DNA from: a virus
Length of the DNA stretch: 64,000 nt
Virus record (IMG/VR): IMGVR_UViG_3300032288_001980
Location: 64,001 to 128,000 of that record
Strand: one strand, 5' to 3'
In this document: piece by piece, positions 37,129-57,055 of the stretch
Numbering within the stretch: the stretch's first letter is position 1
How the letters are laid out: each line of letters starts with the position of its first letter
Program-made: the position numbers and the translations under genes
The notes under the pieces: model-generated
The model's database searches: none
Told to the model about the DNA's origin: nothing
The model's input: only the letters and a program-made list of their open reading frames with translations

Positions 37129-37461
37129 ATGGCTATTAGAAAAAAAGATCGTGGCTTTGACGACATCCTCGACGATGTTGTAATGAACCAAGTTCCTGCT
37201 GAATATATTGAAGAAGTATTGGTTCATTTAACTAACGGGCAAACTATTAGATTTACAGGAAACGAGATAGCAAAGCTAGACAGTTTACCAGAAAAATTAC
37301 AAGAAGAAGGCTTAATTGAAACCAAAGAAATGGTATCCGATGTTGAGATAACCATGGACCTTGCAAGAATCAAAAAACACATGAAGAAGTATGTTAGTAC
37401 ATTAATGGCTAAACATTTTGAGAGCGGCGGAGACACAGATGACAACAAGAAGCGAAATTAA
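37129..37461 (+). CDS. Hypothetical protein
   Basis: 110 aa, contiguous. Confidence 0.65.
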   Translation: MAIRKKDRGFDDILDDVVMNQVPAEYIEEVLVHLTNGQTIRFTGNEIAKLDSLPEKLQEEGLIETKEMVSDVEITMDLARIKKHMKKYVSTLMAKHFESGGDTDDNKKRN

Positions 37462-38323
37462 TTTTGAACAAGATAAAAATTATGTTCCTGTACTAGATCA
37501 CGGCTTTGTAGGACTAGTGGATCACATGGGCAGTGACGGAGCAGTAGTGCAGGCTGCTCGTGTTAGCTACGGAGCAGGAACAAAACAAGTTCAAGATGAT
37601 AGAAATTTAATTCGCTATTTAATGAGACACAAACACACAACACCATTTGAGATGTGTGAAGTAAAGTTTCATATTAAATTGCCTATTTTTGTTATGCGAC
37701 AATTAGTACGACATCGTACTGCCAGCATGAACGAATATAGTGCTCGTTATAGCGTGATGACAGACGAGTTTTATATTCCTGAACTAGAACAAATACAACA
37801 ACAAAGTTCTACTAACAAGCAAGGGAGAGAAGACAATGACTGGGGATTCGAAGAAAAACGAGGAGTGCAACATGCCTTCCAACGAAGTTTTTTCAATGCT
37901 TATAAAGAATACACCGAGCTTTTGGGAAAGGATGGGACTGGCCTTACTCGCGAACTGTCCAGAAGCGTACTCCCAGTGGGCGGCTATACAGAACTCTACT
38001 GGAAAGCAAACCTCAAAAACTTCCTCCACATGGCCCGACTAAGAATGGACAGTCATGCACAATGGGAGATTCAAGAGTTTGCAAGAGCGATGTATGACCT
38101 GGTAAAGCCCTTGTTTCCTCAAGTGTGCGAGGCCTTCGAAGATTACGAACAATACAGCATATCGTGCAGTAGAATGGAAGTAGACTTAATTAAACGTTTA
38201 ATCGGTCAAGATAAATGGTTAGACCTATTAGAAGACTTCAGGGATATTAACGGCATTGCTAAACAGTATGGCATGGGACAACGTGAAATTAAAGAATTCA
38301 CAGAGAAATGGTTAACCAAGTAA
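37439..38323 (+). CDS. thyX: FAD-dependent thymidylate synthase
   Basis: AARVSY, HTTPFE, RQLVRHRTASMNEYSARY, NFLHMARLR..HAQWEI. Confidence 0.95.
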   Translation: MTTRSEINFEQDKNYVPVLDHGFVGLVDHMGSDGAVVQAARVSYGAGTKQVQDDRNLIRYLMRHKHTTPFEMCEVKFHIKLPIFVMRQLVRHRTASMNEYSARYSVMTDEFYIPELEQIQQQSSTNKQGREDNDWGFEEKRGVQHAFQRSFFNAYKEYTELLGKDGTGLTRELSRSVLPVGGYTELYWKANLKNFLHMARLRMDSHAQWEIQEFARAMYDLVKPLFPQVCEAFEDYEQYSISCSRMEVDLIKRLIGQDKWLDLLEDFRDINGIAKQYGMGQREIKEFTEKWLTK

Positions 38324-38925
38324 TTGTAACTGACTTATGCAGAAATTCAACGTATTTGGAATTGTTCAACAAAGTAGTAGAAGAAATTCAACTAGGCGAT
38401 GATGAGCTAAAAGCCAATTACGTTGATATTCAGCCAAAAGATTTTGCTAGCCTCACTGTTGCTATACGCGGTAGTGAGGTTTTAGCTTTTAGTGGTATGC
38501 AAATTCAACCTGACAGGTGGGGCACAGGTAAGGCTAGAGTTAGTGCTAGATTTTACATACCTCCTAAATTTAGACACGCACATTTACAAAAATTTGAACC
38601 CAGTGATAGGTACGTTAATAGCGCATATCTAATACCTAGACAAATAGCTGTTGCCAAAAGTTTGAATTTAGATTGCGTGTTTATTAGTCGTGAAGATAAA
38701 CAAAGAAGTTTCAGTAAATTTATAGATTTAGTTAACGCCAATGGCGGCTATAATTTTAAAATGCATGAAACAAAATTAGGCGTATGTGGACCATTACCTA
38801 AAGGATATATGCCCAGCGAGTGTTGTCAATGGGTAGCAACTATGCCACTTAAAGACGGAGCCGATTATGATTTCATTGGCTACTTAAAACAAATAACCTG
38901 CGAGAACTGCAATGAGACCAAATAA
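38308..38925 (+). CDS. Hypothetical protein, possible GNAT-like fold
   Basis: LAFSGMQ...RVSARFY..P.FR...QIAVAKSLNLDCVFISR pattern. Confidence 0.4.
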   Translation: MVNQVIVTDLCRNSTYLELFNKVVEEIQLGDDELKANYVDIQPKDFASLTVAIRGSEVLAFSGMQIQPDRWGTGKARVSARFYIPPKFRHAHLQKFEPSDRYVNSAYLIPRQIAVAKSLNLDCVFISREDKQRSFSKFIDLVNANGGYNFKMHETKLGVCGPLPKGYMPSECCQWVATMPLKDGADYDFIGYLKQITCENCNETK

Positions 38926-39508
38926 GATAGCTATTACTGGACACACTAAAGGTATAGGATCGGCCTTGGCCAATTACTACACAGCCCTTGGTATAGAAGT
39001 TATAGGCTTTAGTCGCACTAACGGATATGATATCAGTAAAGGTGTTGACCAAGAACGCATTATAAACGAAAGTCAGGACTGTGATTTGTTTATCAACAAT
39101 GCTTACTTTAGATATTCCCAAGTAGACTTACTACAACGTTGGTATAATTTTCACCAAAAGAAATCTAATTATATGATTGTTAATATGAGCAGTTTGGCTG
39201 GCGATGCTTGTATGCATTTAGGTAAAGTTTATCCATATGGTCTTCACAAAAAAGCTCTAGACGATGCTAGTTATCAAATGAACTTGGCCGGTGGCTGTAA
39301 ATGTAAAATTATCAACATCAAGCCCGGGCATATTAAAACTGACTTCTTAACGGAAACTAGCACATATACCTATGCACAACTGCGCCAGCCTAGCAGTATT
39401 ATGTCTGTAGATCAGTTGGTAAAGGTTGTTGCATTTGCTGTAGATATTGCCGATGAGAAAAGTTACATAAGTAATGTAACATACAAAGGCGACACTAGTA
39501 CAATATAA
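38912..39508 (+). CDS. Short-chain dehydrogenase/reductase
   Basis: IAITGHTKGIG, FINNA, NMSS, catalytic YxxxK (YGLHK), IKPG. Confidence 0.88.
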   Translation: MRPNKIAITGHTKGIGSALANYYTALGIEVIGFSRTNGYDISKGVDQERIINESQDCDLFINNAYFRYSQVDLLQRWYNFHQKKSNYMIVNMSSLAGDACMHLGKVYPYGLHKKALDDASYQMNLAGGCKCKIINIKPGHIKTDFLTETSTYTYAQLRQPSSIMSVDQLVKVVAFAVDIADEKSYISNVTYKGDTSTI

Positions 39509-40062
39509 TGTCAGACACTTTAGACGTACAAAAATTAGATATTAAATTTGATCCGGCAAAGTTAAAAAGAGAGCTGGGCTTATTATACCACCAATATCCT
39601 TTTCATAAGGATGCCAATCAACTGGCTCTTAGTCACAGCGGCAAATTTACAACTGTTAAAGAACAATTATACGACGGAGTAGGTAGCTTATATGATCGTA
39701 AAAACAATGTAGAGATAGATCAAGAAGACAATTATACTCATATTTGTGATTACGTTAAAGGAAGATACTGGGAAGAAGTAATTAATCAAATAAAAGAAAT
39801 AAGTCCTTTACCGTTAGGTCGGATTCGATTAATGTTACTCAAACCTAAAACTTGTTATAGTTGGCACAAAGACAGCGATGAAATTAGATACCATGTACCT
39901 ATAAGTACTAATGCCAATAACTTTATTGCTACAGAAAAAGGCCTTTACAGAATGGAAGAAGAGGGTAGATTATATACATTAGTAAGTACAGTTTGGCATA
40001 CAGCACTGAACGCTAGTTTCCAACCTAGGGTACACTTAGTATGTTCTACATATAAAACATGA
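39508..40062 (+). CDS. 2OG-Fe(II) oxygenase (AspH-like)
   Basis: RIRLMLL, WHKD (HxD), RYHVP, WHTALN, RVHLV. Confidence 0.75.
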   Translation: MSDTLDVQKLDIKFDPAKLKRELGLLYHQYPFHKDANQLALSHSGKFTTVKEQLYDGVGSLYDRKNNVEIDQEDNYTHICDYVKGRYWEEVINQIKEISPLPLGRIRLMLLKPKTCYSWHKDSDEIRYHVPISTNANNFIATEKGLYRMEEEGRLYTLVSTVWHTALNASFQPRVHLVCSTYKT

Positions 40063-40652
40063 TATTTTTTGACCACATTGCATCCAATTTAAATGTTATA
40101 CCTGCCTTAGAAGAAGTAATGGCAAATAACAACTTATTTGCTCCTCATACAAAAGTTAAGGCAATTAGTCCTGCACTAGAAGAAGTAGAAAGCATACATC
40201 TACGCATACATCCGCCGGTAGAAGTACAAAGCCGAAAAGAAGGCGAACACTGGGACGCCAAAGACCTTGCTGATCAACAGGCTAGATCTATTATTGATAC
40301 AGAAGCTTTTAAACAGTTAAATCAGGTGCGTAAACTAATAGAACATGCAATGACTCTACTACCCGCAGGACATTTAGGCAGGGCATATATATCTAAACTT
40401 GTCCCAGGAGGAAAGATTTATCCGCACGTAGATCCTGGATTATACTTTGCTATACATAATAGATATCATATTGTATTAACTACAAATCCTGACGTAGAAT
40501 TTTTTACAGAAACAGAAAATATTAAGTGCCAGCCAGGCGAACTGTGGCGGTTTAATAACAGAGCTAAACACTGGGGAGAAAATAAAGGCAGTACAGATAG
40601 ACTGCATATTATTTTTGACATTGCACATAATCCTAGATTTTATGACTATTAA
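40059..40652 (+). CDS. Aspartyl/asparaginyl beta-hydroxylase-like 2OG-Fe(II) oxygenase
   Basis: LVPGGKIYPHVD, RYHIVL, FNNRAKHWGEN, DRLHIIFD. Confidence 0.85.
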   Translation: MIFFDHIASNLNVIPALEEVMANNNLFAPHTKVKAISPALEEVESIHLRIHPPVEVQSRKEGEHWDAKDLADQQARSIIDTEAFKQLNQVRKLIEHAMTLLPAGHLGRAYISKLVPGGKIYPHVDPGLYFAIHNRYHIVLTTNPDVEFFTETENIKCQPGELWRFNNRAKHWGENKGSTDRLHIIFDIAHNPRFYDY

Positions 40653-41511
40653 ACATACACCTATTAACAAAGACATTGGTAGTCTAGTAGAAGCATCCTT
40701 TGATGAAATGATGCAGTTTGACGACTTTGAATTAAGAGAATTAATTTATCGACGCAAGGCTCTTGTGTTTAAAAACGTTAACGTTAGCGCCGATGAAATG
40801 GCTGCATTTAGTAAGAAGTTTGGCAAGCCATGGACTGCTGACATGTATCAAAATCATACTAAAGAACATTTCAAAGTAGCTGCCAACGAAGTAGCATATA
40901 CAGAGTACGACGACAAAAGCTATCCTAGATTATACAAAAGTCTAACATGGCACTGTGATATTGCCAATGAACGAGGATTAGAACCTTTTCCCTTTAGACT
41001 GTTATACTGTACAGACTTGCCTACTAAGATGAAAGGCGGGTCCACTGATGTTGCAGACTTAGGGATTATTCGCAGGGATTGGGATAACAAGCCGCCACAT
41101 AACATTAATTTAAAGAATTTAAATTTCTTATATAATAGTTGGCAGAAAAATTTTACAAATCAAAAATGGTATCCTGCAATTGATCGTCATCCATGGACAG
41201 GTGAAGAATTTGTTAGATATAATGCATTTGGTACTGACGGTGCTTGGATACTTAGAACTGTTATTAAAAAAGAAGACGGTGATGTATGGTTACCTAACGA
41301 GTTTATGCGTGATCTTAGTGTTGGACAAATTGAAGCTACAGACTTTCTAGAGCATAAATGGGAAGTGGGTGATGTATTAATATTTGATAACTGGGCAACA
41401 ATACACAGACGAGGAGATATGGAAATCTTGGAGGGCAGTGAAGGTCGTAGAAGTTTTATACGTATCAGCATTGACCACGAATTTGACAAGATGCCACCGT
41501 ATATACCATGA
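40642..41511 (+). CDS. TauD/TfdA-family dioxygenase
   Basis: LVFKN, WHCD, GGST..AD, HKWEVGDVLIFDNWATIHRR. Confidence 0.88.
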   Translation: MTIKHTPINKDIGSLVEASFDEMMQFDDFELRELIYRRKALVFKNVNVSADEMAAFSKKFGKPWTADMYQNHTKEHFKVAANEVAYTEYDDKSYPRLYKSLTWHCDIANERGLEPFPFRLLYCTDLPTKMKGGSTDVADLGIIRRDWDNKPPHNINLKNLNFLYNSWQKNFTNQKWYPAIDRHPWTGEEFVRYNAFGTDGAWILRTVIKKEDGDVWLPNEFMRDLSVGQIEATDFLEHKWEVGDVLIFDNWATIHRRGDMEILEGSEGRRSFIRISIDHEFDKMPPYIP

Positions 41512-42443
41512 TAGAGTACACAGAAAATAATCACTTTCACTGGACCTATGACAACGTTCCGTTTGCATTGCGTAAGAATCCTTATAGCACATTTAAAATG
41601 CACTGGGGTAAACCTAGCCGGCCGGTAGGCAACTTCAAGGACGAAAGCCTTAATGTTTGCCGTATGTTAGCAGACCGATACCCTAATCAAAAGTTTAACG
41701 TGTTCTTTAGTGGTGGTATTGACAGTGAACTTGTTCTACAAGCATTTATGTGGGCTGGACTAAAGCATCGTACAAAAGCAACTATTATTCGTTTCAAAGA
41801 CGGATACAATGATCATGATATACAATATGCCACAGATTTTTGTGTGTATCACAATGTTCCGCATACTGTTTTAGAACTAGATATAGTAGAATTTTATCGC
41901 AGTAAGGAATATATTCCACTGGGTATGAAGTATCAAAGTATCCAACTAGCACAAATACAATGCTTGTGGGCACTAGACAAGATACAAGATGATATCCCTG
42001 TATTGGGCACCGGAGAAGTATTCTTTGAAAAAATATTCAATTGGAAGTCTTGGATGGCCGACGAACCCAAACAAGAATACAATTGGGTGTATTATGTCAG
42101 GGAAAACAATGATCTTAGTGTGCCAAAATATAGTGTATTGAATCAGCGACCTGTTATCAGTGAGTTCTTTAGTTATACTCCCGAAATCATGAAAGCCTAT
42201 GTAAATGATTCTATTGTACAGGATTTATTAGCCGATAGACTTCCGGGAAAATTAAGTATTGCAAGTAGCAAGTATTCAATATATAATAAGTACTTCTTTC
42301 TCAAGCCTAGAAAAAAATATCACGGCTATGAAACACTCAAATTGTTAAACGTGCAGGCTCAACATGAAATGCTACAGTATATACCTTATAACGACCATAG
42401 GTTTGAAATGTTAGCCACAGACTTTATTAAGACGCTAGAATGA
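41508..42443 (+). CDS. PP-loop adenylating enzyme (asparagine synthetase C-domain-like)
   Basis: FFSGGIDSE PP-loop, LGTGE, KKYHGYE. Confidence 0.55.
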   Translation: MIEYTENNHFHWTYDNVPFALRKNPYSTFKMHWGKPSRPVGNFKDESLNVCRMLADRYPNQKFNVFFSGGIDSELVLQAFMWAGLKHRTKATIIRFKDGYNDHDIQYATDFCVYHNVPHTVLELDIVEFYRSKEYIPLGMKYQSIQLAQIQCLWALDKIQDDIPVLGTGEVFFEKIFNWKSWMADEPKQEYNWVYYVRENNDLSVPKYSVLNQRPVISEFFSYTPEIMKAYVNDSIVQDLLADRLPGKLSIASSKYSIYNKYFFLKPRKKYHGYETLKLLNVQAQHEMLQYIPYNDHRFEMLATDFIKTLE

Positions 42444-43057
42444 AAATCGTAAAACTAGACCTAAGCTACTTTGACCAAATCAACGATATTCAGCAAGATT
42501 ACAATACTTTTGCAGGAGTTGATGTTAGTAGTGTGCCTTATTACAGGGCAGATATGGCTATGAGTCGCCATAACAATCTTGCTAATTTATATTTAGGAGA
42601 AGACAATCCACAATTTATGATGTGGGGCTATGTCGACGAAACAAATAACAATCGATTGTATGCCGCAATGACTCAGTATTTTAATCCTGATGTTAACATG
42701 TGGTATATTCAAAAAGCTATTACACGTAGAGCAGAACGTATTCCTAGTTTGGGCAACAGAAACGGCTTAGTTGAAGTAATGCAACATGCCATCGATTTTG
42801 CAGAAAAACGAGATTGTTTTCAATACATTATGGCTTATCCTAAACGCTACTATTTGGCGCACAAACGTATTTGGCCTAAATATGTCAAACAACGTCAAGA
42901 ACGGTACGACAGCGTAGTAATAAATGTAATTCCTGCTAATACACGACCACCATTTTTAGACCAATGGATGTGGTTAATGAATAGTGCATTATGGCCCACT
43001 GATTTAGTTGTTACTATGCAGTACCTACGTCCAGAATTTAGACAAGAAATTGTCTGA
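42440..43057 (+). CDS. Hypothetical GNAT-like protein, paralogue of 47081..47719
   Basis: Shared MWGY/AWGY, GL, IP..R..F and L.P motifs. Confidence 0.5.
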   Translation: MKIVKLDLSYFDQINDIQQDYNTFAGVDVSSVPYYRADMAMSRHNNLANLYLGEDNPQFMMWGYVDETNNNRLYAAMTQYFNPDVNMWYIQKAITRRAERIPSLGNRNGLVEVMQHAIDFAEKRDCFQYIMAYPKRYYLAHKRIWPKYVKQRQERYDSVVINVIPANTRPPFLDQWMWLMNSALWPTDLVVTMQYLRPEFRQEIV

Positions 43058-43065
43058 TATAAATA
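43058..43065 (+). promoter_or_regulatory. T4-type late promoter TATAAATA
   Basis: Exact T4 late consensus directly after the upstream stop, 5 nt before ATG 43071. Confidence 0.6.
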
Positions 43066-43070
43066 TCAAT

Positions 43071-43838
43071 ATGAAAACTACTGGACACAGCATAAAACTA
43101 TTTTGGCCTGTACATATTGCAGCCTTGCTGGGCGCTATTGCCATGGCATTATGGGGTAATTTAAATTACCTTTGGTTCTGGCCTGTCGGCTGGATATTAA
43201 TTAGCGGACTAGGCAGTGCTATTGGTCTGCACAGAGTACTAAGCCACAAATGTTTGCCGGAAACAAGTAAGTTTACCAAAAGAGTTCTAACATTGCTGGG
43301 CTGTATGGCCGGGCAAGGAAGTCCTATTTTCTGGGTAGCACTACACAGGGGCTATCATCACAGTCACGCCGACACACCTCGAGATATACACAGTCCTATA
43401 CACGGTTTATTTCATTCTTACCTAAGTTGGAGTTGGAAGATTACTCCCACTGATGTTAACTTGAAATATGCTGTGGATCTATTACGTGACAAATTTCAAG
43501 TATGGGTACATACCAACTATTATAAACTAGTATGGAGTGTAATCATTGTTACAGCATTAATCAATTGGCAGTTAGCCGTTTGTTTAATTTTGTTGCCTAT
43601 GATTACAGGTATTCATCAAGAAGCTTGCATCAACATGTTCTGTCATTTAAAGAACGTTGGTTATAGGAATCACGAAATCAACGACAACAGCCATAATGTA
43701 CCTGTATTGGGTTATTTTGCTTGGGGTCAGGGTTGGCACAACAACCATCACAAACATCCTGGTAATTATAATTTTGGAGAAAAGTGGTGGGAATTTGACC
43801 CTTGTATGATTTTTTATCCTATACTCAAAAGAATTTAA
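43071..43838 (+). CDS. Membrane fatty-acid desaturase (delta-9-like)
   Basis: Three His boxes HRVLSH, HRGYHH, HNNHH; TM segments; WEFDP. Confidence 0.92.
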   Translation: MKTTGHSIKLFWPVHIAALLGAIAMALWGNLNYLWFWPVGWILISGLGSAIGLHRVLSHKCLPETSKFTKRVLTLLGCMAGQGSPIFWVALHRGYHHSHADTPRDIHSPIHGLFHSYLSWSWKITPTDVNLKYAVDLLRDKFQVWVHTNYYKLVWSVIIVTALINWQLAVCLILLPMITGIHQEACINMFCHLKNVGYRNHEINDNSHNVPVLGYFAWGQGWHNNHHKHPGNYNFGEKWWEFDPCMIFYPILKRI

Positions 43839-45385
43839 TGACTGTCGATATTTTAATTTTTACTGAATTTACCAGCACGACCGTATTTCAACGCCTAATA
43901 GGTGCGTATCGTATTGCCACGGAGTTGCGTAAAAATGGCTATACGGTACAGGTAGTAGATTACTTAACTGAATGGACACCCGAAGAGCTTAATCAAATTG
44001 TAGATAAATTTGTAGGTTCCAATACATTATTTGTTGGCTTTAGTAGCACTCTTTATGCTATACGAGATCAAGCACTCAGCGATAACAGTAGACCTAACCA
44101 TTATCGTAGAGAATTAAGATATACAGAAGATTTTCCATTTAGACCCGAAGTCAGTTACGCATTTATTAAACACATTAAAGAAGTCAATCCTAATACTAAA
44201 ATTGTTTTAGGTGGCCAGCGCAGTCAATACAAAAACAGTAAATTAGTAGACTGTTTTATTCACGGCTATGCGGACCACACTACTGTAGAATATGCACATT
44301 ATTTGTCGGGCAAGCCTTATGATCAATCTGTGTTAAAGATGATTCCTATCAATGATCATCAAATAGAAATAGATTGGATCAAAGATCCTGAGTGGAACTT
44401 TCAAACTAGCCAAGTACTATGGCAAGACAATGACTTAATTTACGACAATGAAGTGTTGCCCATTGAAATTAGTAGGGGTTGTATCTTTAGATGTGATTTT
44501 TGTAGCTTTCCTATGAATGGCAAAGACAAGTTTGATTATATCAAAGACAGTACACCACTTAAAGAAGAATTTATACGCAACTATGAAAAGTGGGGAATAA
44601 CGAATTATATCTTTGCTGACGACACTTACAACGACAGTATCTACAAAGTAGAAAAACTTTACAACGAAGTATTTTCGCAACTACCATTTAAAATACAATT
44701 CAGTGCATATTTGCGACACGACTTAATTCACGCTAATCGAGATATGGCGCCGCTACTAAAAGAAAGCGGACTTAAGACTTGTGTGTTTGGTTTAGAAAGT
44801 CTAAATCATAAAAGTGCATTAGCTATTGGCAAAGGCCTGCACCCAGAGAAAAGCAAAGAATTATTGCACTGGTTACGTGACGAAGCATGGGGTAAAGATA
44901 TTACAATGAGCAGTGGCTTTATTGTAGGCTTGCCACACGAAACAGAAGAAACATTTCGTGAATGGATGGAATGGGTCGAAGATGAAAACTGTCCATTGGA
45001 TGGATATACTGTTGAGCCGCTGGGCTTTAACATTAACGAAAAGAAAATTTGGCCCAGCAAGTTTGAAGCTAATCCGGAAGCCTATGGTTACAACATTATC
45101 AACAAAGGTGTTGCTAACAATAGTTTTTTCCGTTGGAGTATGTGGAGCAATCCTCATATGACGCTACCTAAAGCGTGGGCAATTGCCGATGAATATATTA
45201 TGCGAGGGTACCGAAGTGGGCGGATCAAGCCAGCTGGCTTCTTCCAGTTCATGTGGATGAATGGCACTGGTTTAACCGCCGACGATTTAGCAGGAATGAG
45301 CGTTAAAAATGTCAGTGCAGATTTTTTAAAAGACAAAAAAACTGAATGGTTTAAACTTTACAAACAAAGACTTTTTAATTTATAA
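43838..45385 (+). CDS. B12-binding-type radical SAM protein
   Basis: N-terminal GAYRIATELR..G..VQVVD, VLGG, EISRGCIFRCDFC, FADDT, FGLES, GFIVGLPHE. Confidence 0.85.
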   Translation: MTVDILIFTEFTSTTVFQRLIGAYRIATELRKNGYTVQVVDYLTEWTPEELNQIVDKFVGSNTLFVGFSSTLYAIRDQALSDNSRPNHYRRELRYTEDFPFRPEVSYAFIKHIKEVNPNTKIVLGGQRSQYKNSKLVDCFIHGYADHTTVEYAHYLSGKPYDQSVLKMIPINDHQIEIDWIKDPEWNFQTSQVLWQDNDLIYDNEVLPIEISRGCIFRCDFCSFPMNGKDKFDYIKDSTPLKEEFIRNYEKWGITNYIFADDTYNDSIYKVEKLYNEVFSQLPFKIQFSAYLRHDLIHANRDMAPLLKESGLKTCVFGLESLNHKSALAIGKGLHPEKSKELLHWLRDEAWGKDITMSSGFIVGLPHETEETFREWMEWVEDENCPLDGYTVEPLGFNINEKKIWPSKFEANPEAYGYNIINKGVANNSFFRWSMWSNPHMTLPKAWAIADEYIMRGYRSGRIKPAGFFQFMWMNGTGLTADDLAGMSVKNVSADFLKDKKTEWFKLYKQRLFNL

Positions 45386-45396
45386 GAGAGACAGAC

Positions 45397-46017
45397 ATGT
45401 GGGTACACATATTAACTAACAGTATGAATAGAGTGTTAGTACATGCTCAGGACAAGAAACATTTATATTTTGTTAATGAATGTTTTTTTGATACTCATGT
45501 ATACACAGGAGATCTAGACAAGAATCTCGAATCACAATTTAAATCTAACCCTAGCGACTTTATGCTTCGTGGTTCTAAAATTGTTTATAGTCCAGGTGAA
45601 AATATCGATGACTATCGTAAGTTTGTAGAATACAAATTATGGAGTTACTATGATATATTAACTAAAATAAATCTAGCTAGAGTAAAAGAAATTGAAATTT
45701 GTGCCGGGCAATCAGAAGTATACAAGATGAAATACGATCAGGCCTGCTTACTAAAAGAACACAGCTACGATGCTAAATTAGTTGGCCATAACCGAGTACA
45801 ACTAGTACTAGATTATGCAGAGTTAGATAACTGTACTGTTGAGCAAGCCGCAGATCAAATCATATTGCAATATACAATGCATTTAGAAATGATGACTAAA
45901 ACAGAATGGTTTAGAATCAAATATATGCGATTACTAAAACAAGCCAAGACTGCTGGAGAAGTAAAACAAGTTATGGATAGCTTGCACAAAGAAACATTTT
46001 TGAATATACTATTATGA
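45397..46017 (+). CDS. Hypothetical protein; C-terminus resembles tail-fibre assembly-type domains
   Basis: Q..VYKMKYDQA...YAE...TVEQAADQI...E..R...LKQAKT..EV pattern. Confidence 0.4.
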   Translation: MWVHILTNSMNRVLVHAQDKKHLYFVNECFFDTHVYTGDLDKNLESQFKSNPSDFMLRGSKIVYSPGENIDDYRKFVEYKLWSYYDILTKINLARVKEIEICAGQSEVYKMKYDQACLLKEHSYDAKLVGHNRVQLVLDYAELDNCTVEQAADQIILQYTMHLEMMTKTEWFRIKYMRLLKQAKTAGEVKQVMDSLHKETFLNILL

Positions 46018-47087
46018 GTTCGTTAATATATTATAATCAGTTAGACTTATATAAACCGCAATGGTGCTCTAAGTATCCTGAGCTAGATAAATTCAGTGTA
46101 TTCAGTAAAGCATTTAACAGTGGCATAAGCCTTGTAGACCGAACTGGAACTATAAAGATGCCGGTTAATTTAGTTAACAGACATCCTATGCCTGCGCTAC
46201 AACCAAGTGTATATACGTTTGAAGAACTTTGTTATCTAACATGGCAAAAAATTGAACTGCATATAAGAACTACTAAATTAAGACCTGTAATTATGTACAG
46301 CGGTGGAATTGACAGTACTTTAATTGTTAATTTAATGCATACATACGCCAGTAAAGAATTTAAAGAAAGATTGTTAATTATATTAAACAGCAATAGCATA
46401 CAAGAAAATCCTGTACTATACGAAACTGTAATTAAACGAAATTACAAAACAGAAAGTTCTAACAGTTTTGAAAATTATTTCAATCACTTTAATTACGTTA
46501 TTACAGGAGAGTTCGCTGACAATGTATTCGGTAGTTTAACTTTAAAATCTAGCATTGATTTTTTTGCAACCGAGGCCGTTATTACTGGCAACTACAAAGT
46601 ATTTGCATTTGATTTCTTTAACGCTAAAATAAATGATGCAGATAAAACTAATTGGTTCTTGGACCAAATGGAGCAATTGATAAAAACTTGTCCATGGGAA
46701 ATTAAAACATGGGCTGATTACTTATGGTATCAAAACTTTGCAATGAAGTGGCAGGCCGTTGAGTTTAGAATTATGAGTCATAAAAATGATTCATTAATTG
46801 TCAATGACGAATTCTTGAATAAGCATGTATGCCATTTCTGGGCTAGCGAAGAATGGCAACAGTGGAGTATAAACAATCCTGATAAGAAAATTAAAAATAC
46901 GTGGGTAAGTTATAAGTTCCCTGCTAAAGAACTTATCTATAAATTAAGCAAGGACAGTGACTATCTTGAACGCAAAACTAAATTTCCTAGCTTGCCTGGT
47001 GTATTTAGATATCGAAGAGTTAATAACTTTATTACAGATAAGTTTGAATTTGTAGATGACATTAAAATAGAGGATTATCTATGTTAA
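46014..47087 (+). CDS. Asparagine synthetase-like PP-loop enzyme
   Basis: MYSGGIDST, ITGEFADNVFG (compare AsnB SGEGADELFG), HFW, YKFPAKELI, RKTK. Confidence 0.65.
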   Translation: MSSLIYYNQLDLYKPQWCSKYPELDKFSVFSKAFNSGISLVDRTGTIKMPVNLVNRHPMPALQPSVYTFEELCYLTWQKIELHIRTTKLRPVIMYSGGIDSTLIVNLMHTYASKEFKERLLIILNSNSIQENPVLYETVIKRNYKTESSNSFENYFNHFNYVITGEFADNVFGSLTLKSSIDFFATEAVITGNYKVFAFDFFNAKINDADKTNWFLDQMEQLIKTCPWEIKTWADYLWYQNFAMKWQAVEFRIMSHKNDSLIVNDEFLNKHVCHFWASEEWQQWSINNPDKKIKNTWVSYKFPAKELIYKLSKDSDYLERKTKFPSLPGVFRYRRVNNFITDKFEFVDDIKIEDYLC

Positions 47088-47719
47088 ACAATGTTGCATA
47101 TCAGTTAACTGTTGACGATTTGCCCCGCATTTTAGAAATTTATAAAACTAGAAATTCTAATTTGAAAGTTAAAATAACAACAACGTTAGATCAATATTTT
47201 CAAAAAGCATTCGAAGTTGCATGTAGTAATCGACTAGGTCATAGTGCATGGGGTTACAAAAATGACAAGGGCGAACTTATAATGTTTGCTACACGTAGTC
47301 ATTGGTCTAGTATGCCTTATGCCACTATAGGAAATGTCTTTATTGACTCTGAAAATTCTTTTTTTGGATTAAACAAAAAAGGCCTAATGACAATGAATCA
47401 GTTTTTAACTGATATTTTTTATGACAGTGCAATAAATCATCAACGGTATGTATCTTATATGGCGCGAACATATAAAGATGCTGTAGTTTCTATTAAAAGC
47501 ATTAAGCGAACAGAACAAGATAGAAACTTGATATTTAAAATGGGATTTGTTGAAATTATTCCTCCTTATAATAGAGCTAAATTTGAATTTGGTAGTAATA
47601 TATTAGGAATACTTGAAGGTAGGAATCCCGAACCTGTAATTATACGTAACTGGACTCTGGAGCCCAATCAAATACCTGCACTTGCCAGATTAAAGAATTA
47701 TGAATTTGTTATTAACTAA
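47081..47719 (+). CDS. Hypothetical GNAT-like protein, paralogue of 42440..43057
   Basis: LTVDDLPRILEIY, AWGY..D.GEL, KGL, IIPPYNRAKF. Confidence 0.5.
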   Translation: MLNNVAYQLTVDDLPRILEIYKTRNSNLKVKITTTLDQYFQKAFEVACSNRLGHSAWGYKNDKGELIMFATRSHWSSMPYATIGNVFIDSENSFFGLNKKGLMTMNQFLTDIFYDSAINHQRYVSYMARTYKDAVVSIKSIKRTEQDRNLIFKMGFVEIIPPYNRAKFEFGSNILGILEGRNPEPVIIRNWTLEPNQIPALARLKNYEFVIN

Positions 47720-47740
47720 ATATACAACTTGGAGAATATT

Positions 47741-48049
47741 ATGAGCATTAAAATTATCACTATTATGAAGCGTCCCAGCGAAGATATTGAGTTTTTCTTT
47801 CTGAAGTACAAGGACCATCCTGTTATGACACAAATGAGAATGAATGCCATGGAGCATCCAGGATTTGTGGGCACAAAGGTAGAAATAAGCGAAGACCGGT
47901 TAACTAGTACAGTTACCATGGAGTTTACCAACGACAACGATTTAAGGTCTTTTGTTAATGCCAACGAAGAACTACTAGTTCAACGCGGTATGCTAATGGA
48001 CGAATGGGTAACTGCAAATAACTGTCAGTTTGACGTTTATATTGGTTAA
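47741..48049 (+). CDS. Small hypothetical protein (possible dimeric alpha/beta barrel)
   Basis: TAAATA at 47717-47722 and GGAG RBS; alternating strand/helix pattern. Confidence 0.6.
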   Translation: MSIKIITIMKRPSEDIEFFFLKYKDHPVMTQMRMNAMEHPGFVGTKVEISEDRLTSTVTMEFTNDNDLRSFVNANEELLVQRGMLMDEWVTANNCQFDVYIG

Positions 48050-48870
48050 CGTTTAAAGCCAATAATCATAAACCTATGCCAGCCTGCATAGGATATAGAG
48101 CCAGAATAAACAATGTCAATGTCATGGCATTGTTTTTCAAATTCCTCAAGAGTTTCTACACAATTAACATGATCCTGCATCTCAAACATATTATTTGTTT
48201 GAAGTAGTAATAATTTTCCTGTAGGTATCATATCTAACCATGCTTGAAAGTTGGCTACATGCTCGCATATTGTATTGACAATTGTGTCATGGACTGAATA
48301 ATCAACTGTATAGATATCATGATCGACAGCCAAGTACTTTCCTTTACTAGCTAAATCTAAATTTAAAATCATACCAGCACGATTAGCAACATCATCTATA
48401 TCGTAGCTTATAACTTTTGAATTATCATTGGCTTCTATTAATATAATTCGGGCCAGCGTTCCTATCCAGCCTCCACATAAGCATATAGTACCCAAGTCGT
48501 AAGACTTTAGTTGCTCTGCGGCCCAGATTTTACTTTGTACTTGAAACCTACTTAGGCCGTCTCGCCAGTTGACTTCGGGAAATTCTTTTATAGCTGTTTG
48601 TAAATTACTTAATAGAGTAGCATCAACTGTATGAGTCGCTAAAAATAACTCTATTAGTTTATCTACGTTATCCAAGTCATTTGCCAGTCTGTCAATAATA
48701 GCAGATGTCTTTGTTCTTATCATGTAAGGAACACTGTCAATTACTGCTTGTTTATTTTCTTCGCTGGCATGATGCACATAGTCGTAAATCATCTTAAACA
48801 ACGGTTTGTTTATTTGAACTCTTTTGTATTCATCGAGCCCGTATAATAAGTCTTTACTTTGCAGATTCAT
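48046..48870 (-). CDS. Class I SAM-dependent methyltransferase-like protein
   Basis: LCGGWIGTL, VISYDID, HDIY, VNTICEH. Confidence 0.65.
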   Translation of the reverse strand: MNLQSKDLLYGLDEYKRVQINKPLFKMIYDYVHHASEENKQAVIDSVPYMIRTKTSAIIDRLANDLDNVDKLIELFLATHTVDATLLSNLQTAIKEFPEVNWRDGLSRFQVQSKIWAAEQLKSYDLGTICLCGGWIGTLARIILIEANDNSKVISYDIDDVANRAGMILNLDLASKGKYLAVDHDIYTVDYSVHDTIVNTICEHVANFQAWLDMIPTGKLLLLQTNNMFEMQDHVNCVETLEEFEKQCHDIDIVYSGSISYAGWHRFMIIGFKR

Positions 48871-50938
48871 AGTTTAACCATTGAGTATGCAACCAATCAT
48901 AATCGTTAATCATGTTTATAGAATCTTTGTTATTTTGTATCCAATCTCTGCCAGCACACGCACCTGCAACGGCATAGTCGCCGTTACTTACACCTAGATT
49001 AACGGTACACCATGTTTGTAATCGTTGATCGGACTCGCTGTCAATTTGGTTTTTAATTACTTTACTAGCCAGTTTTGCCGCTTCCCTGAATCCACTGCGC
49101 CATGCAGTTTCTGGATCACAATTAAATTCTGTAGTACCTATAACTCTTGGTATAACTTTAAATCCTGCACCTATACTAGTAGCCAAGTCAACACGCCAGT
49201 CAGTTGCATTTTTTAATAATTTGGTAGGGAATAGTTTTACACCACCGTAGCCATAAGTTAAACCGTTAACCGGATTCTTAACGTGCCACACATAGACTAC
49301 ATTTCTATCATGCGGCTTTGGATATAAGTCAAAAGCAAAGCTACCTTCGACTACACAATCTGCATCTACTAGATAAAACATATCTGTAGTAACTACATTG
49401 GCAGCGGCCTTATGTGCTTCTAATATTCCTTTGACCCCGTCAACTCTATGTAACTTGGATTTATTATGAATTAATTTTTCTAGCTTTGCATAGTTACTGT
49501 CTGCATAAGGCTCGTTATTGCTCAAAAATACAATGTCAAATTCTTCCTCGGTACACCCGTGCTCAAAACATTTTATAGCACCACGTTTAACTTTATCTGT
49601 GAGCTCTATGCCTTGTGGCACTAGATAACATCCTGCCCATTCAGTTACTCTGCCTGTTTTAGGATTAGTCATTGTAAACACATGAACTTTATCTTCGTTA
49701 CCGCGGCCAGGCATAAACTTTTTATTCCACTGGGGCACTGGTATGCAATTTTTATCAAAATGCCAATATAGTTTTGTATCACCGGGCCCGATGCTCCACT
49801 CAGTCATAAAGGGTCTAGCGTAACCTTGTTCTTTGTATCCTTGAGTATTTGTTACATAGGAAACTTTAACTCCGTACTTTTTATCTGTACCTTCACAGTA
49901 CCAAACGTGCAAGAATTGTAAACTATCATAACTGGGAACAAATTTGTTTGTTACATTAGACCAATCATATAATTGAAAATCCGGATTGACTTGTATTTTT
50001 GGTTGGAGATTTAACTCTATCTCACCCATGTCTAGCTCACCTGTTATAGAATCACTGGGTGTTAGCCTGACTGCCCAAATTCTTTCACCGGGGGGTGTAT
50101 GACTAGAATCCAAATACCAAGTATGGGTTAGATTCATCTTATCTGCTAGCGGTCTATAGTTATACTCAAAGTTTTTGAAGTTAATGTTTTCAAACAAAGG
50201 ATTGGTTTCCCATTTCATATTATCATAGAAATTTAAAACGTTTAACGTGCCTTCTACAACTGTGCCTACAAAGTGCTGTGGCTCTAAACTATATGCCCAT
50301 ACATCGTAATTTGGTAGTTCGACATCTCCTGCCAAATTCCATACATGTCTATATTTTCCCTGGCTATAGTGAAAGTTATTAGTATTGTCTATGCCTGAGT
50401 ATATGCTGTCAGGGAGACTTGTATTTTTTATTAATTTAAACTGATTTTTTGCAGTTTTATCTACAATTTTTAATCCTTGCGGGTCTGAAATATAAGAAAT
50501 TCGTACAGCTTCAATGTCTTCGCCGTCTGTAATAGCAGGGTCAAACAGCCATATATGTTCATATTTCAAATCGTAAGTTGGCGGTAAAAAGTCTACCATT
50601 TGTTTAATGTCAGCATTATAGTATGTGCTAACAGTTATTCGACGTTTTGGTTCTGTTATGTACTGAACATAGCCGCCGTCCCATCTAGCAGGAATTAATT
50701 TTGCTAACCAAAAACTTCTGTCGGGCCAAATCCATATATGTAGATTTTTAGACTCGTAGCCGATCGGAGAAAAGCCCCAATCAAAGTTTTCAAATACTTC
50801 TAAATCTTGTATTTCTTTATTGACAAACCAAGTAGTTTGTCCGTTAGTCATAGCCGATAACTCTTGATCAGTAAAAGGCCTGTCAACAAATACTACTGGA
50901 AATTTACTTATTTGTGTAATGCTGTCTAAATCTGTCAT
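48854..50938 (-). CDS. Multidomain protein: degenerate N-terminal repeats plus C-terminal GT-A glycosyltransferase-like domain
   Basis: FDIVFLSNNEP, GVKGILEAHKAAA, YLVDAD (DxD), YGYGGVKLF; recurring H-x-W units in the N-terminal part. Confidence 0.7.
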   Translation of the reverse strand: MTDLDSITQISKFPVVFVDRPFTDQELSAMTNGQTTWFVNKEIQDLEVFENFDWGFSPIGYESKNLHIWIWPDRSFWLAKLIPARWDGGYVQYITEPKRRITVSTYYNADIKQMVDFLPPTYDLKYEHIWLFDPAITDGEDIEAVRISYISDPQGLKIVDKTAKNQFKLIKNTSLPDSIYSGIDNTNNFHYSQGKYRHVWNLAGDVELPNYDVWAYSLEPQHFVGTVVEGTLNVLNFYDNMKWETNPLFENINFKNFEYNYRPLADKMNLTHTWYLDSSHTPPGERIWAVRLTPSDSITGELDMGEIELNLQPKIQVNPDFQLYDWSNVTNKFVPSYDSLQFLHVWYCEGTDKKYGVKVSYVTNTQGYKEQGYARPFMTEWSIGPGDTKLYWHFDKNCIPVPQWNKKFMPGRGNEDKVHVFTMTNPKTGRVTEWAGCYLVPQGIELTDKVKRGAIKCFEHGCTEEEFDIVFLSNNEPYADSNYAKLEKLIHNKSKLHRVDGVKGILEAHKAAANVVTTDMFYLVDADCVVEGSFAFDLYPKPHDRNVVYVWHVKNPVNGLTYGYGGVKLFPTKLLKNATDWRVDLATSIGAGFKVIPRVIGTTEFNCDPETAWRSGFREAAKLASKVIKNQIDSESDQRLQTWCTVNLGVSNGDYAVAGACAGRDWIQNNKDSINMINDYDWLHTQWLNYESAK

Positions 50939-51608
50939 ATAACCACTCGAAATCATTAACTCGTTTAAGTGCTTCTAGATTGTTTTTATTTTCGGTGCCG
51001 TACTGTTTTCCAGCAACAGCACCAGAGATCGCTTCTTTGGCATAATTGCCTTCGGCGATAGTACACCATGTATCTAAACGTTGTTTAGTAATGTCATCAT
51101 CACTAATTATACCACTGGCCAGTTTAGTACACTCTCTGAACGCACTACGCCATGTACTAAAAGGATCAGTGTTGAATTGCGTTATGTTGCTTATTTGTTC
51201 TTTGCTGACAAACTCTGCCCCCATACTAGTAGCAAGATCAACACGCCATTCTTTAATGTTTAATAATAAATCTTTTCGAAACAGTTTTACGCCGCCATAT
51301 CCATACACTAGATTGTTTACAGGATTTTTACTAGTCCAACAAAATACACAATCAGTTGACGGTATTCTTCCGTAGATTAATTCGGATACAGTTGGACTGT
51401 AGTCAAAGTAAAAATCATCAACTATATAAGCATCTGCATCTACAACATAAAAATGACTAGTCATGCTTTTTCTTGCGGCAGCTTGATGTGCTTCTAATAT
51501 TCCTTTGACCCCCGATACTCTTTTTGCATGAGGAGCATACTCTAATAATCTCGAGTAGTTTGCTTCTGCATTAGGTTCGTTATAACTTAAAAATATAACA
51601 TCAAGCAC
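50904..51608 (-). CDS. GT-A glycosyltransferase-like protein
   Basis: DVIFLSYNEP, YVVDAD, YGYGGVKLF, WRSAFRE; GTG start. Confidence 0.75.
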   Translation of the reverse strand: MLDVIFLSYNEPNAEANYSRLLEYAPHAKRVSGVKGILEAHQAAARKSMTSHFYVVDADAYIVDDFYFDYSPTVSELIYGRIPSTDCVFCWTSKNPVNNLVYGYGGVKLFRKDLLLNIKEWRVDLATSMGAEFVSKEQISNITQFNTDPFSTWRSAFRECTKLASGIISDDDITKQRLDTWCTIAEGNYAKEAISGAVAGKQYGTENKNNLEALKRVNDFEWLYDRFRQHYTNK

Positions 51609-53013
51609 GGCGAGACTCCATATAAAATGGAATTAATTCAGGAAATGTAACCTTGAAATTAGTTCCTCTTCTTTTGTCATGCTCTTCGATAAACAATGCA
51701 AAGTTTCGTCTATCTCTTTTTAATTTTTCTGGATCTAGTTTATGGTTATCTAATAGATGTTTAATTCGTTCGGCTGCATGTAATTCATGCTGATAAAATC
51801 CGTAATGATCCGGATGTTTATGGCCATGTCCTAAATTTTGTTTAATGTAATTGATGCATTCTGTATAACTGGCTTTCATTTCATCATTAGCTATTAAACT
51901 ACTTAAAAAGTCCGGGTGCCTTAAGTAAGGAAAGTCTACATACAAAGGATGTGGTCTTTTTTCGGACCTTAAAATATTTTTATCGTTTTTAATTGCGGCT
52001 ATGTCTTCTAAAAAATGTTTGAACATTGGCAAACTTAATACATTAAATGTCACCATAATAGTAACCGACACATCAGGACATTCTTTAATTATACGTTGCA
52101 CATTTGTGTACCACTGTTTGTAATCCATACCGTGACGAATATAATCGGCCTGGGGACCAAATGTATCTGCACTGGTATAGATATGTAATTTCTTAACCGC
52201 ATTTGCTGTTGTGATTCTTTTTAGTTGTTCTATCGTTTTATCTATAATAGAATCGGGTAAACATAAATTAGTGTTAATTGCAAAATTTAGATTAGGATTA
52301 GGATTGGCTTCTATATAGTCTAAAGTCCTAAACGTGTTCTTGTTCATTAACGGCTCGCCACCGGTAATTCTAAAAGTATGTAAATTGGGATATAACTCGG
52401 GCCACCATTGCCACCAAGCATCTACGTAAGGATTGTCTTCCCTGTCAGGTATTGGCATGCGATCTAATTCTTTAAGGCGCTCTATGTTATTAAATTTAAT
52501 TCCTTGCAGATTATAAGGGCCAAATTTAACTGCTTCTTCCATCCACTTACTACTAATGTCAGGACTGCAATATGAACACTTAAAATTACAGCCGTTACCA
52601 AAACTAACTTCAACGTAAGTAGGAACAGTATTATCCGTTGGATCTGCATTGACAATTTTATGCATGTACGGATAACTCCATTCTTCTGCTGTCTTTAATA
52701 TTCTATCACTAAAGTGAGTACCTTCTGTATCTTCTACACGCCAGCAATAATCACATTCAGTGGGTCTAGTACCTTCGAGCATTTGTGCTCTTAGAGATTT
52801 TTTATATTGTGTATTGTGTAATGCACTAGGGTTTGTTTTTATTTCTTCTAAAGGAATCTTATGTTGCATAGGATGGTGACAACTGTGTGTCATTCCTGTT
52901 TGCAAATGAATAGTTACTTGGGTCCATTTAGCCGCACAAAAGCTAGGACTAACATTATCAATAACTTGTTTAATGTGCCCTAGTCGTTGATTAAAGTAAC
53001 TATAATCACTCAT
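51601..53013 (-). CDS. Radical SAM protein, paralogue of 654..2060 and 3348..4694
   Basis: CNFKCSYC, ITGGEPLM, FCAAKWTQ..HSCHHP..ECDYCW, HDKRRGTNFKVTFPEL. Confidence 0.9.
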   Translation of the reverse strand: MSDYSYFNQRLGHIKQVIDNVSPSFCAAKWTQVTIHLQTGMTHSCHHPMQHKIPLEEIKTNPSALHNTQYKKSLRAQMLEGTRPTECDYCWRVEDTEGTHFSDRILKTAEEWSYPYMHKIVNADPTDNTVPTYVEVSFGNGCNFKCSYCSPDISSKWMEEAVKFGPYNLQGIKFNNIERLKELDRMPIPDREDNPYVDAWWQWWPELYPNLHTFRITGGEPLMNKNTFRTLDYIEANPNPNLNFAINTNLCLPDSIIDKTIEQLKRITTANAVKKLHIYTSADTFGPQADYIRHGMDYKQWYTNVQRIIKECPDVSVTIMVTFNVLSLPMFKHFLEDIAAIKNDKNILRSEKRPHPLYVDFPYLRHPDFLSSLIANDEMKASYTECINYIKQNLGHGHKHPDHYGFYQHELHAAERIKHLLDNHKLDPEKLKRDRRNFALFIEEHDKRRGTNFKVTFPELIPFYMESRRA

Positions 53014-57044: not shown

Positions 57045-57055
57045 TCGCAATAGAT

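Follow-up and report, generated by a model that had tools for sequence, protein, structure and literature searches.

The viral contig IMGVR_UViG_3300032288_001980 (IMG/VR) is a single 183,898-bp sequence from a T4-superfamily phage, and the window analysed here is the 64,000-nucleotide (nt) stretch comprising bases 64001–128000 of that contig. Between positions 38308 and 48049 of the window, 13 open reading frames (ORFs; g1–g13) occupy the plus strand, with junctions that are either overlaps of 1–38 nt or gaps of 9–13 nt. This layout agrees with the thirteen contiguous, mostly overlapping genes reported in a preliminary description of the DNA, which had interpreted the block as a tailoring cluster resembling a biosynthetic gene cluster (BGC). 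The genes, and a promoter-like motif that lies among them, are as follows; "core" and "accessory" refer to the co-occurrence analysis below.

38308..38925, plus strand: g1, 205 aa with a Cys-rich C-terminus, function not assigned by family searches
38912..39508, plus strand: g2, SDR oxidoreductase of the short classical type, accessory (Pfam adh_short, 31.5 bits; cut-off 26.6)
39508..40062, plus strand: g3, AspH-family Fe(II)/2-oxoglutarate (2OG) oxygenase, core (PF05118, 31.4 bits, cut-off 22.6)
40059..40652, plus strand: g4, second AspH-family oxygenase, accessory (PF05118, 58.4 bits, cut-off 22.6)
40615..41511, plus strand: g5, TauD-family Fe(II)/2OG oxygenase, accessory (PF02668, 81.2 bits, cut-off 27)
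41508..42443, plus strand: g6, PP-loop ATP pyrophosphatase of 311 aa, core (SGGIDS at residue 68, without a glutaminase domain)
42440..43057, plus strand: g7, GNAT-fold protein and partner of g6, core (AlphaFold2 (AF2) model, Foldseek and VIA)
43058–43065, plus strand: TATAAATA, T4-late-promoter-like motif, directly after the g7 stop codon and 5 nt before the g8 ATG
43071..43838, plus strand: g8, membrane SCD1/DesC-type acyl desaturase of ~255 aa, core (PF00487, 52 bits)
43838..45385, plus strand: g9, radical SAM protein with a probable N-terminal cobalamin-binding domain, accessory (PF04055, 59.6 bits)
45397..46017, plus strand: g10, 206 aa, obligate upstream partner of g11 (AF2 predicted local distance difference test score (pLDDT) 93.9)
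46014..47087, plus strand: g11, PP-loop enzyme of 357 aa from a large uncharacterised family, core (SGGIDS at residue 96)
47081..47719, plus strand: g12, GNAT-fold protein by paralogy with g7 (hhalign 95.9% with E 6e-9 over almost the whole length), fastest-evolving of the 13 genes
47729..48049, plus strand: g13, 106 aa, seen only in this lineage (ratio of non-synonymous to synonymous substitution rates, dN/dS, 0.13)

The family labels of the preliminary description hold for 10 of these 13 genes; the GNAT label of g1 is unproven, the "AsnB-like" label of g11 is tentative, and g10 is without a match among solved structures. Its statement that the block contains no nonribosomal peptide synthetase (NRPS) or polyketide synthase (PKS) stands, with no such domain in the 13 proteins or in the flanks examined. 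More generally, neither a scaffold BGC core enzyme of NRPS, PKS or ribosomally synthesised and post-translationally modified peptide (RiPP) type nor a precursor gene was found among the 13 genes or in those flanks.

Comparison with related contigs supports joint inheritance of the genes as one enzyme set under selection, as opposed to shuffled singletons. In particular, all 13 genes are syntenic in five close IMG/VR relatives, among them contigs L001–L004, where amino-acid identity is 45–95% (45–59% for g12, 65–95% for the other genes of the block), and the downstream part of the block is also present in two further contigs (L005 and L008). The dN values are 0.03–0.16 (~0.4 for g12), dS is saturated, and no computable dN/dS exceeds 0.13; in g9, for example, there are 203 synonymous versus 31 non-synonymous codon differences. 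The catalytic motifs are intact and selection on the block is strongly purifying. Two outcomes that would have spoken against the preliminary description are therefore not seen: the synteny in L001–L004 and the recurrence of the core across loci refute shuffling without co-occurrence, and the invariant residues in the g3, g6, g8 and g11 families refute widespread loss of active sites.

To define the recurring part of the set, we used 78 of the at least 447 IMG/VR loci that encode a g11 relative, each with 10-kb flanks, together with the window, for a total of 79 loci. Of these loci, g8 occurs in 32, g6 in 29, the g7 family in 28, m1 in 24, thyX in 21, and g3 and the glycosyltransferase (GT)-like family in 19 each (thyX and the m genes are described below), counts that overstate the number of independent events because many of the co-occurring loci share a phage backbone. 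The core genes stay together in at least five distinct gene orders, and in one locus (L030) the GT block, m1, an SDR gene, g3, g6, g7, g8, g10 and g11 are colinear on one strand. These comparisons show a core of two PP-loop/partner pairs (g6 with g7, and g11 with g10), the SCD1-type g8 and the AspH-type g3, supplemented in this lineage by an SDR, a second AspH, a ScoE-like TauD, a probable B12-type radical SAM protein, a second GNAT and two unknowns. Specifically, g2, g5, g9, g12 and g13 are almost confined to the closest relatives, g4 occurs in a handful of loci, and g1 recurs only through a weakly linked family (F8). The functional unit thus differs from the thirteen genes: the core (g3, g6, g7, g8, g10 and g11) travels with m1 and with m2/m3/m5 of the convergent minus-strand block. 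Many environmental phages combine part of the set with sugar-transferase genes, so it probably represents a real pathway.

Composition varies around this core. In relatives an FA_hydroxylase-superfamily membrane enzyme (family F14; Pfam E 1.4e-13; positions 8242–8703 of locus L043 and equivalents) adjoins g10–g11, and these relatives lack g9 and g5. A cupin (F7) often follows g11 in other loci; we considered it as possible kin of g3 and g4 and found no detectable relationship. A very distant jumbo-phage contig (L006, IMGVR_UViG_3300027710_000010, 299.6 kb) carries at 3508–12553 an analogous, differently composed tailoring cluster, with a 2OG oxygenase, cupins, an SDR, two B12-type radical SAM proteins, a SAM methyltransferase, a QueC-like PP-loop enzyme, an AspH, a g1-like protein and a radical SAM protein with an HMPTM-type zinc ribbon.

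The PP-loop motif is strictly conserved in both g6 and g11. Residues S68, G69, G70, D72 and S73 of g6 are invariant in 32 homologues, and SGGxDS of g11 is invariant across 34 family members. With this motif both proteins belong to the PP-loop ATP pyrophosphatase superfamily, and matches in the Protein Data Bank (PDB) at SGGxDS include LarE, NAD synthase and TilS; the PDB matches of g11, among them TilS/MesJ, QueC and nitrile synthetase, do not extend beyond the PP-loop. Neither g6 (311 aa) nor g11 (357 aa) has an N-terminal glutaminase-type domain of ~200 aa or a GATase match; g6 scores 18.0 bits against Asn_synthase (PF00733), under the cut-off of 21, and g11 with 33 relatives matches no Pfam family, PF00733 included. 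Glutaminase-less AsnB relatives, such as beta-lactam/carbapenam synthetases and lasso cyclases, resemble g6 and g11 in SGGxDS, in the absence of a glutaminase domain and in the expected adenylation followed by nitrogen attack. However, g6 and g11 are much shorter and are without the N-terminal domain, and g11 has an obligate partner, g10, that is without a structural match. A TGE..D..FG-type motif after the PP-loop is presumably comparable to the AsnB C-domain, and we treat it as a lead only. The earlier analogy of g11 with AsnB and lasso cyclases finds no support beyond the PP-loop motif, and no lasso precursor, leader-recognition element or Cys protease occurs among the 13 proteins (small ORFs of <50 aa were outside the survey).

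The partner of g6 was assigned from its predicted structure. AF2 models were made for g7 and g10, and the Foldseek comparison that the preliminary description had proposed for every protein was run for these two; it identifies a GNAT fold for g7 but gives no PDB match for g10. The g7 model (pLDDT 70) has the strand and helix order of a GNAT, and Foldseek (probability 1.00) returns 251 PDB matches at E ≤ 1e-3, all of those listed being acetyltransferases; VIA aligns 154 of 162 residues with Z 14.3. The closest structural neighbours are small-molecule and protein N-terminal acetyltransferases. Close g7 relatives conserve a loop after beta4 (S103/G105/N106/N108/G109), and the canonical Q/R-x-x-G-x-G/A motif is not evident. 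Because g12 is paralogous to g7, profile comparison confirms a GNAT fold for g12 as well, by homology. None of g1, g7 and g12 has a Pfam GNAT match, and PDB sequence-profile searches with g7, g12, g1 and g10 give nothing significant. A natural fusion supports functional coupling of PP-loop and GNAT proteins, as in the gene orders g6–g7 and g11–g12: P0066, a 561-aa metagenome protein (JGI/ENA), joins a g11-type PP-loop domain (residues 17–355) to a Pfam-significant GNAT domain (residues 460–541). Since this GNAT domain has no sequence similarity to g7 or g12, the support applies at the level of fold only.

The partner of g11 is nearly constant. In most of the 79 loci the gene immediately preceding g11 is g10 or F3, which form one family (hhalign 97.7%; counted as two families, in 41 and 30 loci). 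The g10 model comprises a small alpha/beta N-domain followed by a helical bundle, and residues Q105, Y109, K112, E170 and R173 of g10 are invariant. Foldseek against the PDB gives nothing at E ≤ 0.001, and a wide VIA search gives only generic helical bundles with Z at most 10.1, a score that is uninformative for helical proteins. In BFVD, g10 matches only uncharacterised viral proteins, with DUF4376 and chaperone rows at a non-significant E of 0.18–0.37; no match to a RiPP recognition element (RRE) or a protease was obtained.

The g11 family itself is large. A g11 profile matches 1721 representative clusters (50% identity) at E ≤ 0.001 among 1.84 billion representatives, relatives are encoded in at least 447 IMG/VR loci, and the cluster members looked up are all "hypothetical protein" or unnamed. 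In a collection of isolate and deposited phage genomes, tblastn with g11 and g6 finds no match at BLAST sensitivity, a g11 paralogue gives one marginal match annotated mnmA, and megablast with the whole block gives no match. Among cellular genomes, g10/F3–g11 pairs occur in candidate phyla radiation (CPR) bacteria and Bdellovibrionales, and g11–cupin pairs occur in Bacteroidota and others; in Bernardetia the g11 homologue adjoins a cupin and a GDP-mannose-dehydratase-type epimerase. Two EukProt proteins of 593–654 aa (P0105 and P0145, from transcriptomes of the dasycladalean green algae Acetabularia and Neomeris) also match the family at E ~1e-51 to 1e-57; their source may be the alga, a virus or an associated bacterium.

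The desaturase g8 is the sole protein among the 13 with predicted membrane segments, having two hydrophobic regions. It matches the SCD1 structure 4ZYO over residues 29–269 (E 1.5e-13), and H75, H80, H113, H117, H118, N209, H213, H244, H247 and H248 are kept in at least 27 of 29 homologues. Its start is probably the ATG at 43071, to which we revised it; this ATG is conserved in orthologues. In its three His boxes, ninth His, Asn, membrane segments and full-length match, g8 resembles the SCD1/DesC Delta9 desaturases, which include cyanophage DesC-type enzymes (vFADs) with demonstrated Delta9 activity (PMC5776448), but at ~255 aa it is shorter than SCD1 and it is tightly linked to PP-loop and GNAT genes instead of standing alone. 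One tblastn match to g8, in a 254-kb record filed as "Acinetobacter phage MD-2021a" (L106, CAKLQH020000002.1), was set aside because its annotated surroundings look bacterial: trpB/trpC, btuB, baeSR and acyl-CoA dehydrogenases lie around the desaturase, and this stretch resembles a bacterial chromosome.

The three 2OG oxygenases have recognisable active sites or close kin. In the g3 family, H120, D122, H164 and R174 are invariant across 18 homologues; g3 and g4 are paralogues (hhalign 98.4%), neither has a membrane segment in a hydropathy scan, and g4 weakly matches LpxO (24 bits versus a cut-off of 500). The g5 translation contains WHCD and, later, IHRR, the elements of an HxD...H triad, and has an alternative ATG start at ~40642. 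Among solved structures and curated families, g5 is closest to ScoE-type enzymes (PDB ScoE family, E 1e-5 to 1e-8). We considered g5 as a member of the ScoE-type isonitrile synthases, but its score of 46.4 bits against NF049937, versus an equivalog cut-off of 400, makes it a near relative and not a member.

Among the remaining proteins, g2 shows the TGxxxGxG and YxxxK motifs. The radical SAM protein g9 has the CxxxCxxC core (CIFRCDFC); its B12-binding domain scores below threshold (21.8 versus 32.1 bits), and its best NCBIfam matches are all class B radical SAM families, at scores far under their cut-offs. Because the L001 orthologue has an in-frame stop upstream, g9 probably starts at the ATG at 43838. 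No match to g1 was found in Pfam, PHROG or NCBIfam; it is weakly linked to F8 (hhalign E 6e-4), which precedes g6 in relatives, and in the distant contig L006 the g1-like gene adjoins a B12-type radical SAM gene and an AspH gene. Its candidacy as a GNAT is unproven, the best hhalign match to a GNAT family having E 0.002 over 40 columns. For g13, no family match exceeds threshold.

The block is set between a nucleotide-metabolism gene and a convergent gene block that extends to the tail-fibre region. The neighbouring features are these:

37418..38323, plus strand: thyX, flavin-dependent thymidylate synthase, context gene (Pfam Thy1, E 1.4e-56)
48046..48870, minus strand: m1, methyltransferase-like, convergent with g13 (co-occurs with the core in 24 of 79 loci)
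48854..57006, minus strand: m2–m9, comprising GT2-like paralogues m2 (C-terminus), m3 and m5, twitch radical SAM protein m4, and unknowns m6–m9
25743–25749 (plus strand), 43059–43065 (plus strand) and 57039–57045 (minus strand): ATAAATA copies, two or all three of them a short distance before a gene start

The 3′ end of thyX overlaps the start of g1 by 16 nt, and g1–g7 are coupled to thyX upstream. At its other end the block meets the minus-strand block head-on; the latter begins just downstream of tail-fibre-like ORFs, which lie at 57–64 kb and one of which (58107–59159) carries a Peptidase_G2/IMC domain. Among the minus-strand genes, m4 scores 330 bits against N_Twi_rSAM, m1 gives only weak methyltransferase-fold matches, and the GT-like proteins have a conserved DxD and nearest Atlas clusters named "Glycosyltransferase 2-like" (score 0.99). 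PDB sequence-profile searches with the GT-like family and with m1 give nothing significant. The fastest-evolving pair, g12 (45–59% identical to orthologues) and m1 (54–75%), flanks the convergence point, whereas neighbours are 75–95% identical, a pattern that is expected of specificity-determining genes.

The late-type motif that had been noted inside the block as a promoter is real, strongly non-random and conserved, but it could serve only g8–g13 and not the whole block, because it is located between g7 and g8. TATAAATA occurs once in the 64-kb window versus 8.65 expected copies; its ATAAATA part occurs three times versus ~30 expected, an approximately ten-fold under-representation that fits a late-promoter core avoided genome-wide, and at the g8 site it is kept in three orthologous loci (L001–L003). 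The minus-strand copy precedes m9, with which the minus-strand block opens, by 33 nt, and is located downstream of the tail-fibre-like genes. With motifs before g8 and m9, g8–g13 and m9–m1 therefore look, from motif positions, like two convergent late units. A TAAATA core at 47717–47722, 7 nt upstream of the g13 start, may be an extra late start site. Scans for sigma-70 promoters and terminators give counts equal to shuffled expectation.

Tailoring islands of this general kind are already known. "Host recognition cluster" islands have been described in pelagi- and cyanomyophages, with O-chain modification as the proposed role (PMC7029224), and the present locus has the features of one: it is a variable island beside tail fibres, with a GT2-like block, a twitch radical SAM gene and AspH, and its content varies among relatives. 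In moraphages (PMC12619734), GTs are mentioned, and none of the other enzyme types looked for there. Pelagibacter phage Mosig EXVC030M (MT647606, 50.7–69.3 kb) has AspH, desaturase, TauD, methylase, GNAT and AspH genes beside its tail-fibre genes, and an adjoining sugar-type block with DegT-like aminotransferase, carbamoyltransferase and radical SAM genes. Like our phage, Mosig is a T4-like aquatic myophage with a tail-fibre-adjacent island; it has homologues of g3, g5, g8 and m1 (its "putative methyltransferase", E 2e-10), but tblastn finds no homologue of g6, g10 or g11, and the PP-loop/partner pairs and the B12-type radical SAM gene are absent. Our phage also differs from the Kyanoviridae type, its DNA polymerase being nearest to those of Rhizobiales jumbo phages (50% identity to Sinorhizobium phage Phosso; 44–46% to Atu_ph07 and RaK2-type jumbo phages); thousands of T4-superfamily records match this polymerase at under 60% identity. 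We found no paper describing the PP-loop/partner/desaturase core. The phenomenon of the tailoring island is thus known, and the PP-loop/partner/desaturase core and the size of the g10–g11 family were not found described.

We tentatively interpret the thirteen genes as the plus-strand arm of a larger, late-expressed tailoring and glycosyltransferase system beside the tail fibres that makes an acylated, amidated and oxidised glyco- or lipo-conjugate, an interpretation to which we give somewhat less than an even chance. PP-loop enzymes activate a carboxyl or carbonyl oxygen by adenylation, after which a nitrogen or sulfur nucleophile takes its place; GNATs transfer acyl groups from CoA to amines; and SCD1-type enzymes introduce double bonds into membrane-associated acyl thioesters or lipids. 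In the proposed pathway, g8 would act at the membrane to desaturate an acyl chain carried as a thioester or bound to lipid, and the GNAT proteins would move an acyl group from CoA onto an amine. The PP-loop enzymes would adenylate a carboxyl or carbonyl group and a nitrogen nucleophile would replace AMP, creating amide links without a glutaminase domain; because that domain is missing, the nucleophile would have to be a free amine or ammonia. The role of g10 would be that of a substrate-presenting or regulatory subunit. The oxygenases, SDR and radical SAM protein would hydroxylate, reduce and C-methylate the product, and the convergent GT2-like and methyltransferase-like enzymes would join it to sugars or decorate it with sugars. 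Made late in infection, the product would end on the cell envelope, in receptor masking or release, or on the virion, at the tail fibres.

An acyl or lipid-type moiety is favoured by the only membrane enzyme of the block together with several weak family leads. Specifically, the leads are the SCD1-type g8, the FA_hydroxylase beside g10–g11 in relatives, the ScoE relatives of g5 and the weak LpxO match of g4; ScoE enzymes act on amino-fatty acids. The tight g6–g7–g8 trio, taken with the lipid-leaning g5, g4 and FA_hydroxylase relatives, suggests an acyl-bearing, amide-linked moiety. Two groups of characterised systems offer partial parallels. Lipid A and aminolipid tailoring employs LpxO and OlsC (AspH family), OlsE (FA_hydroxylase family) and OlsB (a GNAT-like acyltransferase), and the phage set resembles it in combining AspH, FA_hydroxylase (in relatives), GNAT-fold and methyltransferase-like proteins with a membrane desaturase; however, the LpxO score of g4 is 24 against 500, g3 and g4 are without a membrane segment, and g7 has no specific resemblance to long-chain N-acyltransferases. 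Carbapenem, clavam and tabtoxin clusters combine a glutaminase-less AsnB-type ligase with Fe/2OG oxygenases, class B radical SAM methylases, GNAT and SDR. The mix of enzyme families is similar, but the phage block is without a crotonase-type or thiamine diphosphate-dependent scaffold enzyme and without the beta-lactam synthetase N-domain, and it has membrane desaturase and GT genes.

Several points weigh against this interpretation. The analysis identified neither a substrate nor a carrier protein, nucleotidyltransferase or acyl-activating enzyme, and apart from g8 and the FA_hydroxylase the lipid leads are weak matches below threshold. Long-chain acyltransferases are not among the closest structural neighbours of g7, which are small-molecule and protein N-terminal acetyltransferases. 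The GT label derives from automatic cluster names and DxD, with no Pfam or PDB match for the GT-like proteins. The motif between g7 and g8 divides the block into two possible transcription units, and phage Delta9 desaturases work as stand-alone membrane genes (PMC5776448). Finally, many of the co-occurring loci belong to one broad phage lineage whose members share a backbone, and inherited synteny accounts for part of the linkage.

An unlikely but credible competitor is that the enzymes act only on sugars or nucleotide-sugars, which then serve to glycosylate the virion or lipopolysaccharide (LPS), with the desaturase an independent membrane-fluidity gene. The PP-loop enzymes would then amidate sugar carboxylates, the GNATs would N-acylate amino sugars, and the oxygenases, SDR and radical SAM protein would edit sugars. 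The convergent GT2-like block and twitch radical SAM gene downstream, the DegT-type aminotransferase and carbamoyltransferase of the Mosig analogue and the cupin and epimerase beside the Bernardetia homologue all suit such a pathway, as do the stand-alone phage desaturases on record (PMC5776448) and the interpretation of such islands as O-chain modification (PMC7029224). However, the block itself contains no nucleotidyltransferase, sugar aminotransferase or extended SDR, g8 adjoins PP-loop genes in at least five architectures, and relatives gain a second membrane di-iron enzyme.

Peptide or protein modification, which we consider rather improbable, would have the PP-loop enzymes and their partners make side-chain amides or lasso-like macrolactams, or amidate Asp/Glu, on a virion protein or a small precursor, with AspH, TauD, radical SAM and GNAT proteins as residue-tailoring enzymes. 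AspH, B12-type radical SAM and GNAT proteins are known peptide-tailoring families, and the tail-fibre neighbourhood and late motifs, the protein N-terminal acetyltransferases among the closest folds of g7, and the paralogous g11-type genes near structural genes elsewhere in the genome are consistent with this scheme. Yet inspection of the 13 genes revealed no precursor, leader-binding domain or protease, g11 resembles AsnB/lasso-type enzymes at the PP-loop motif only, g10 has no RRE-like or protease match, and the scheme has no place for a membrane acyl desaturase.

It is more doubtful still, and in our judgement quite improbable, that there is no single pathway and that the block is a hyperplastic island of unrelated auxiliary genes held together by descent only. 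Approximately half of the 13 genes are restricted to or near this lineage, hypervariable islands are typical of T4-like aquatic phages (PMC7029224), and the promoter-like motif splits the block; but the junctions overlap tightly, the g6–g7 and g10–g11 pairs persist into bacteria and through rearrangements, PP-loop and GNAT domains are naturally fused in P0066, and 13 of 13 genes are kept in five relatives despite saturated synonymous divergence. Very improbable is hypermodification of DNA or tRNA, in which the PP-loop enzymes would act on bases like TilS, QueC or MnmA, hydroxymethyl bases would be the targets of the GTs and thyX would feed the pathway: thyX is a neighbour here and in 21 loci, g11 matches TilS/MesJ, QueC and nitrile synthetase at the PP-loop, the weak phage match is annotated mnmA and the L006 cluster has a QueC-like enzyme, but late motifs and a position by the tail genes poorly suit DNA modification, a process required while replication is under way, neither the AspH and TauD families nor membrane desaturases are known base modifiers, and DNA-binding, kinase or transglycosylase components were not detected.

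Returning to the acylated, amidated conjugate of our preferred interpretation, one further step can be proposed, though we doubt it: g10 and g11 (and g6 and g7) may constitute an unrecognised two-component, ATP-dependent amide-forming system that places lipid or glycan decoration on tail fibres or virion proteins and so tunes host recognition. Such a two-component system would be widespread in phages, CPR bacteria and predatory bacteria; in this phage its partners would be a dedicated desaturase, the oxygenases, a radical methylase and the glycosyltransferases, and it would represent phage-encoded post-translational modification. Tailoring islands beside tail fibres are common in abundant aquatic phages; should the product here decorate virions or the envelope, it would matter for superinfection and host range across major groups of aquatic phages. 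The present analysis narrows a vague BGC-like impression to a small gene set open to expression and assay. In particular, it brings out the g11 family, which is large, unnamed and without a Pfam model, and whose near-constant partner has a confidently predicted fold that matches no solved structure.

Related enzymes occur elsewhere in the same genome. There are two further g11-type genes, at least one of them with a partner immediately upstream, one g6-type gene adjacent to a divergent g11-type gene, a second desaturase, a second B12-type radical SAM gene and six twitch radical SAM paralogues. The main elements lie, in genome coordinates, as follows:

23755–24549, 37285–38352, 155407–157211, 48968–49759 and 61999–62601: four further PP-loop paralogues, second B12-type radical SAM gene and second desaturase

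The second desaturase lies just upstream of a seven-gene radical SAM array, and tailoring enzymes make up an unusually large share of this phage genome.

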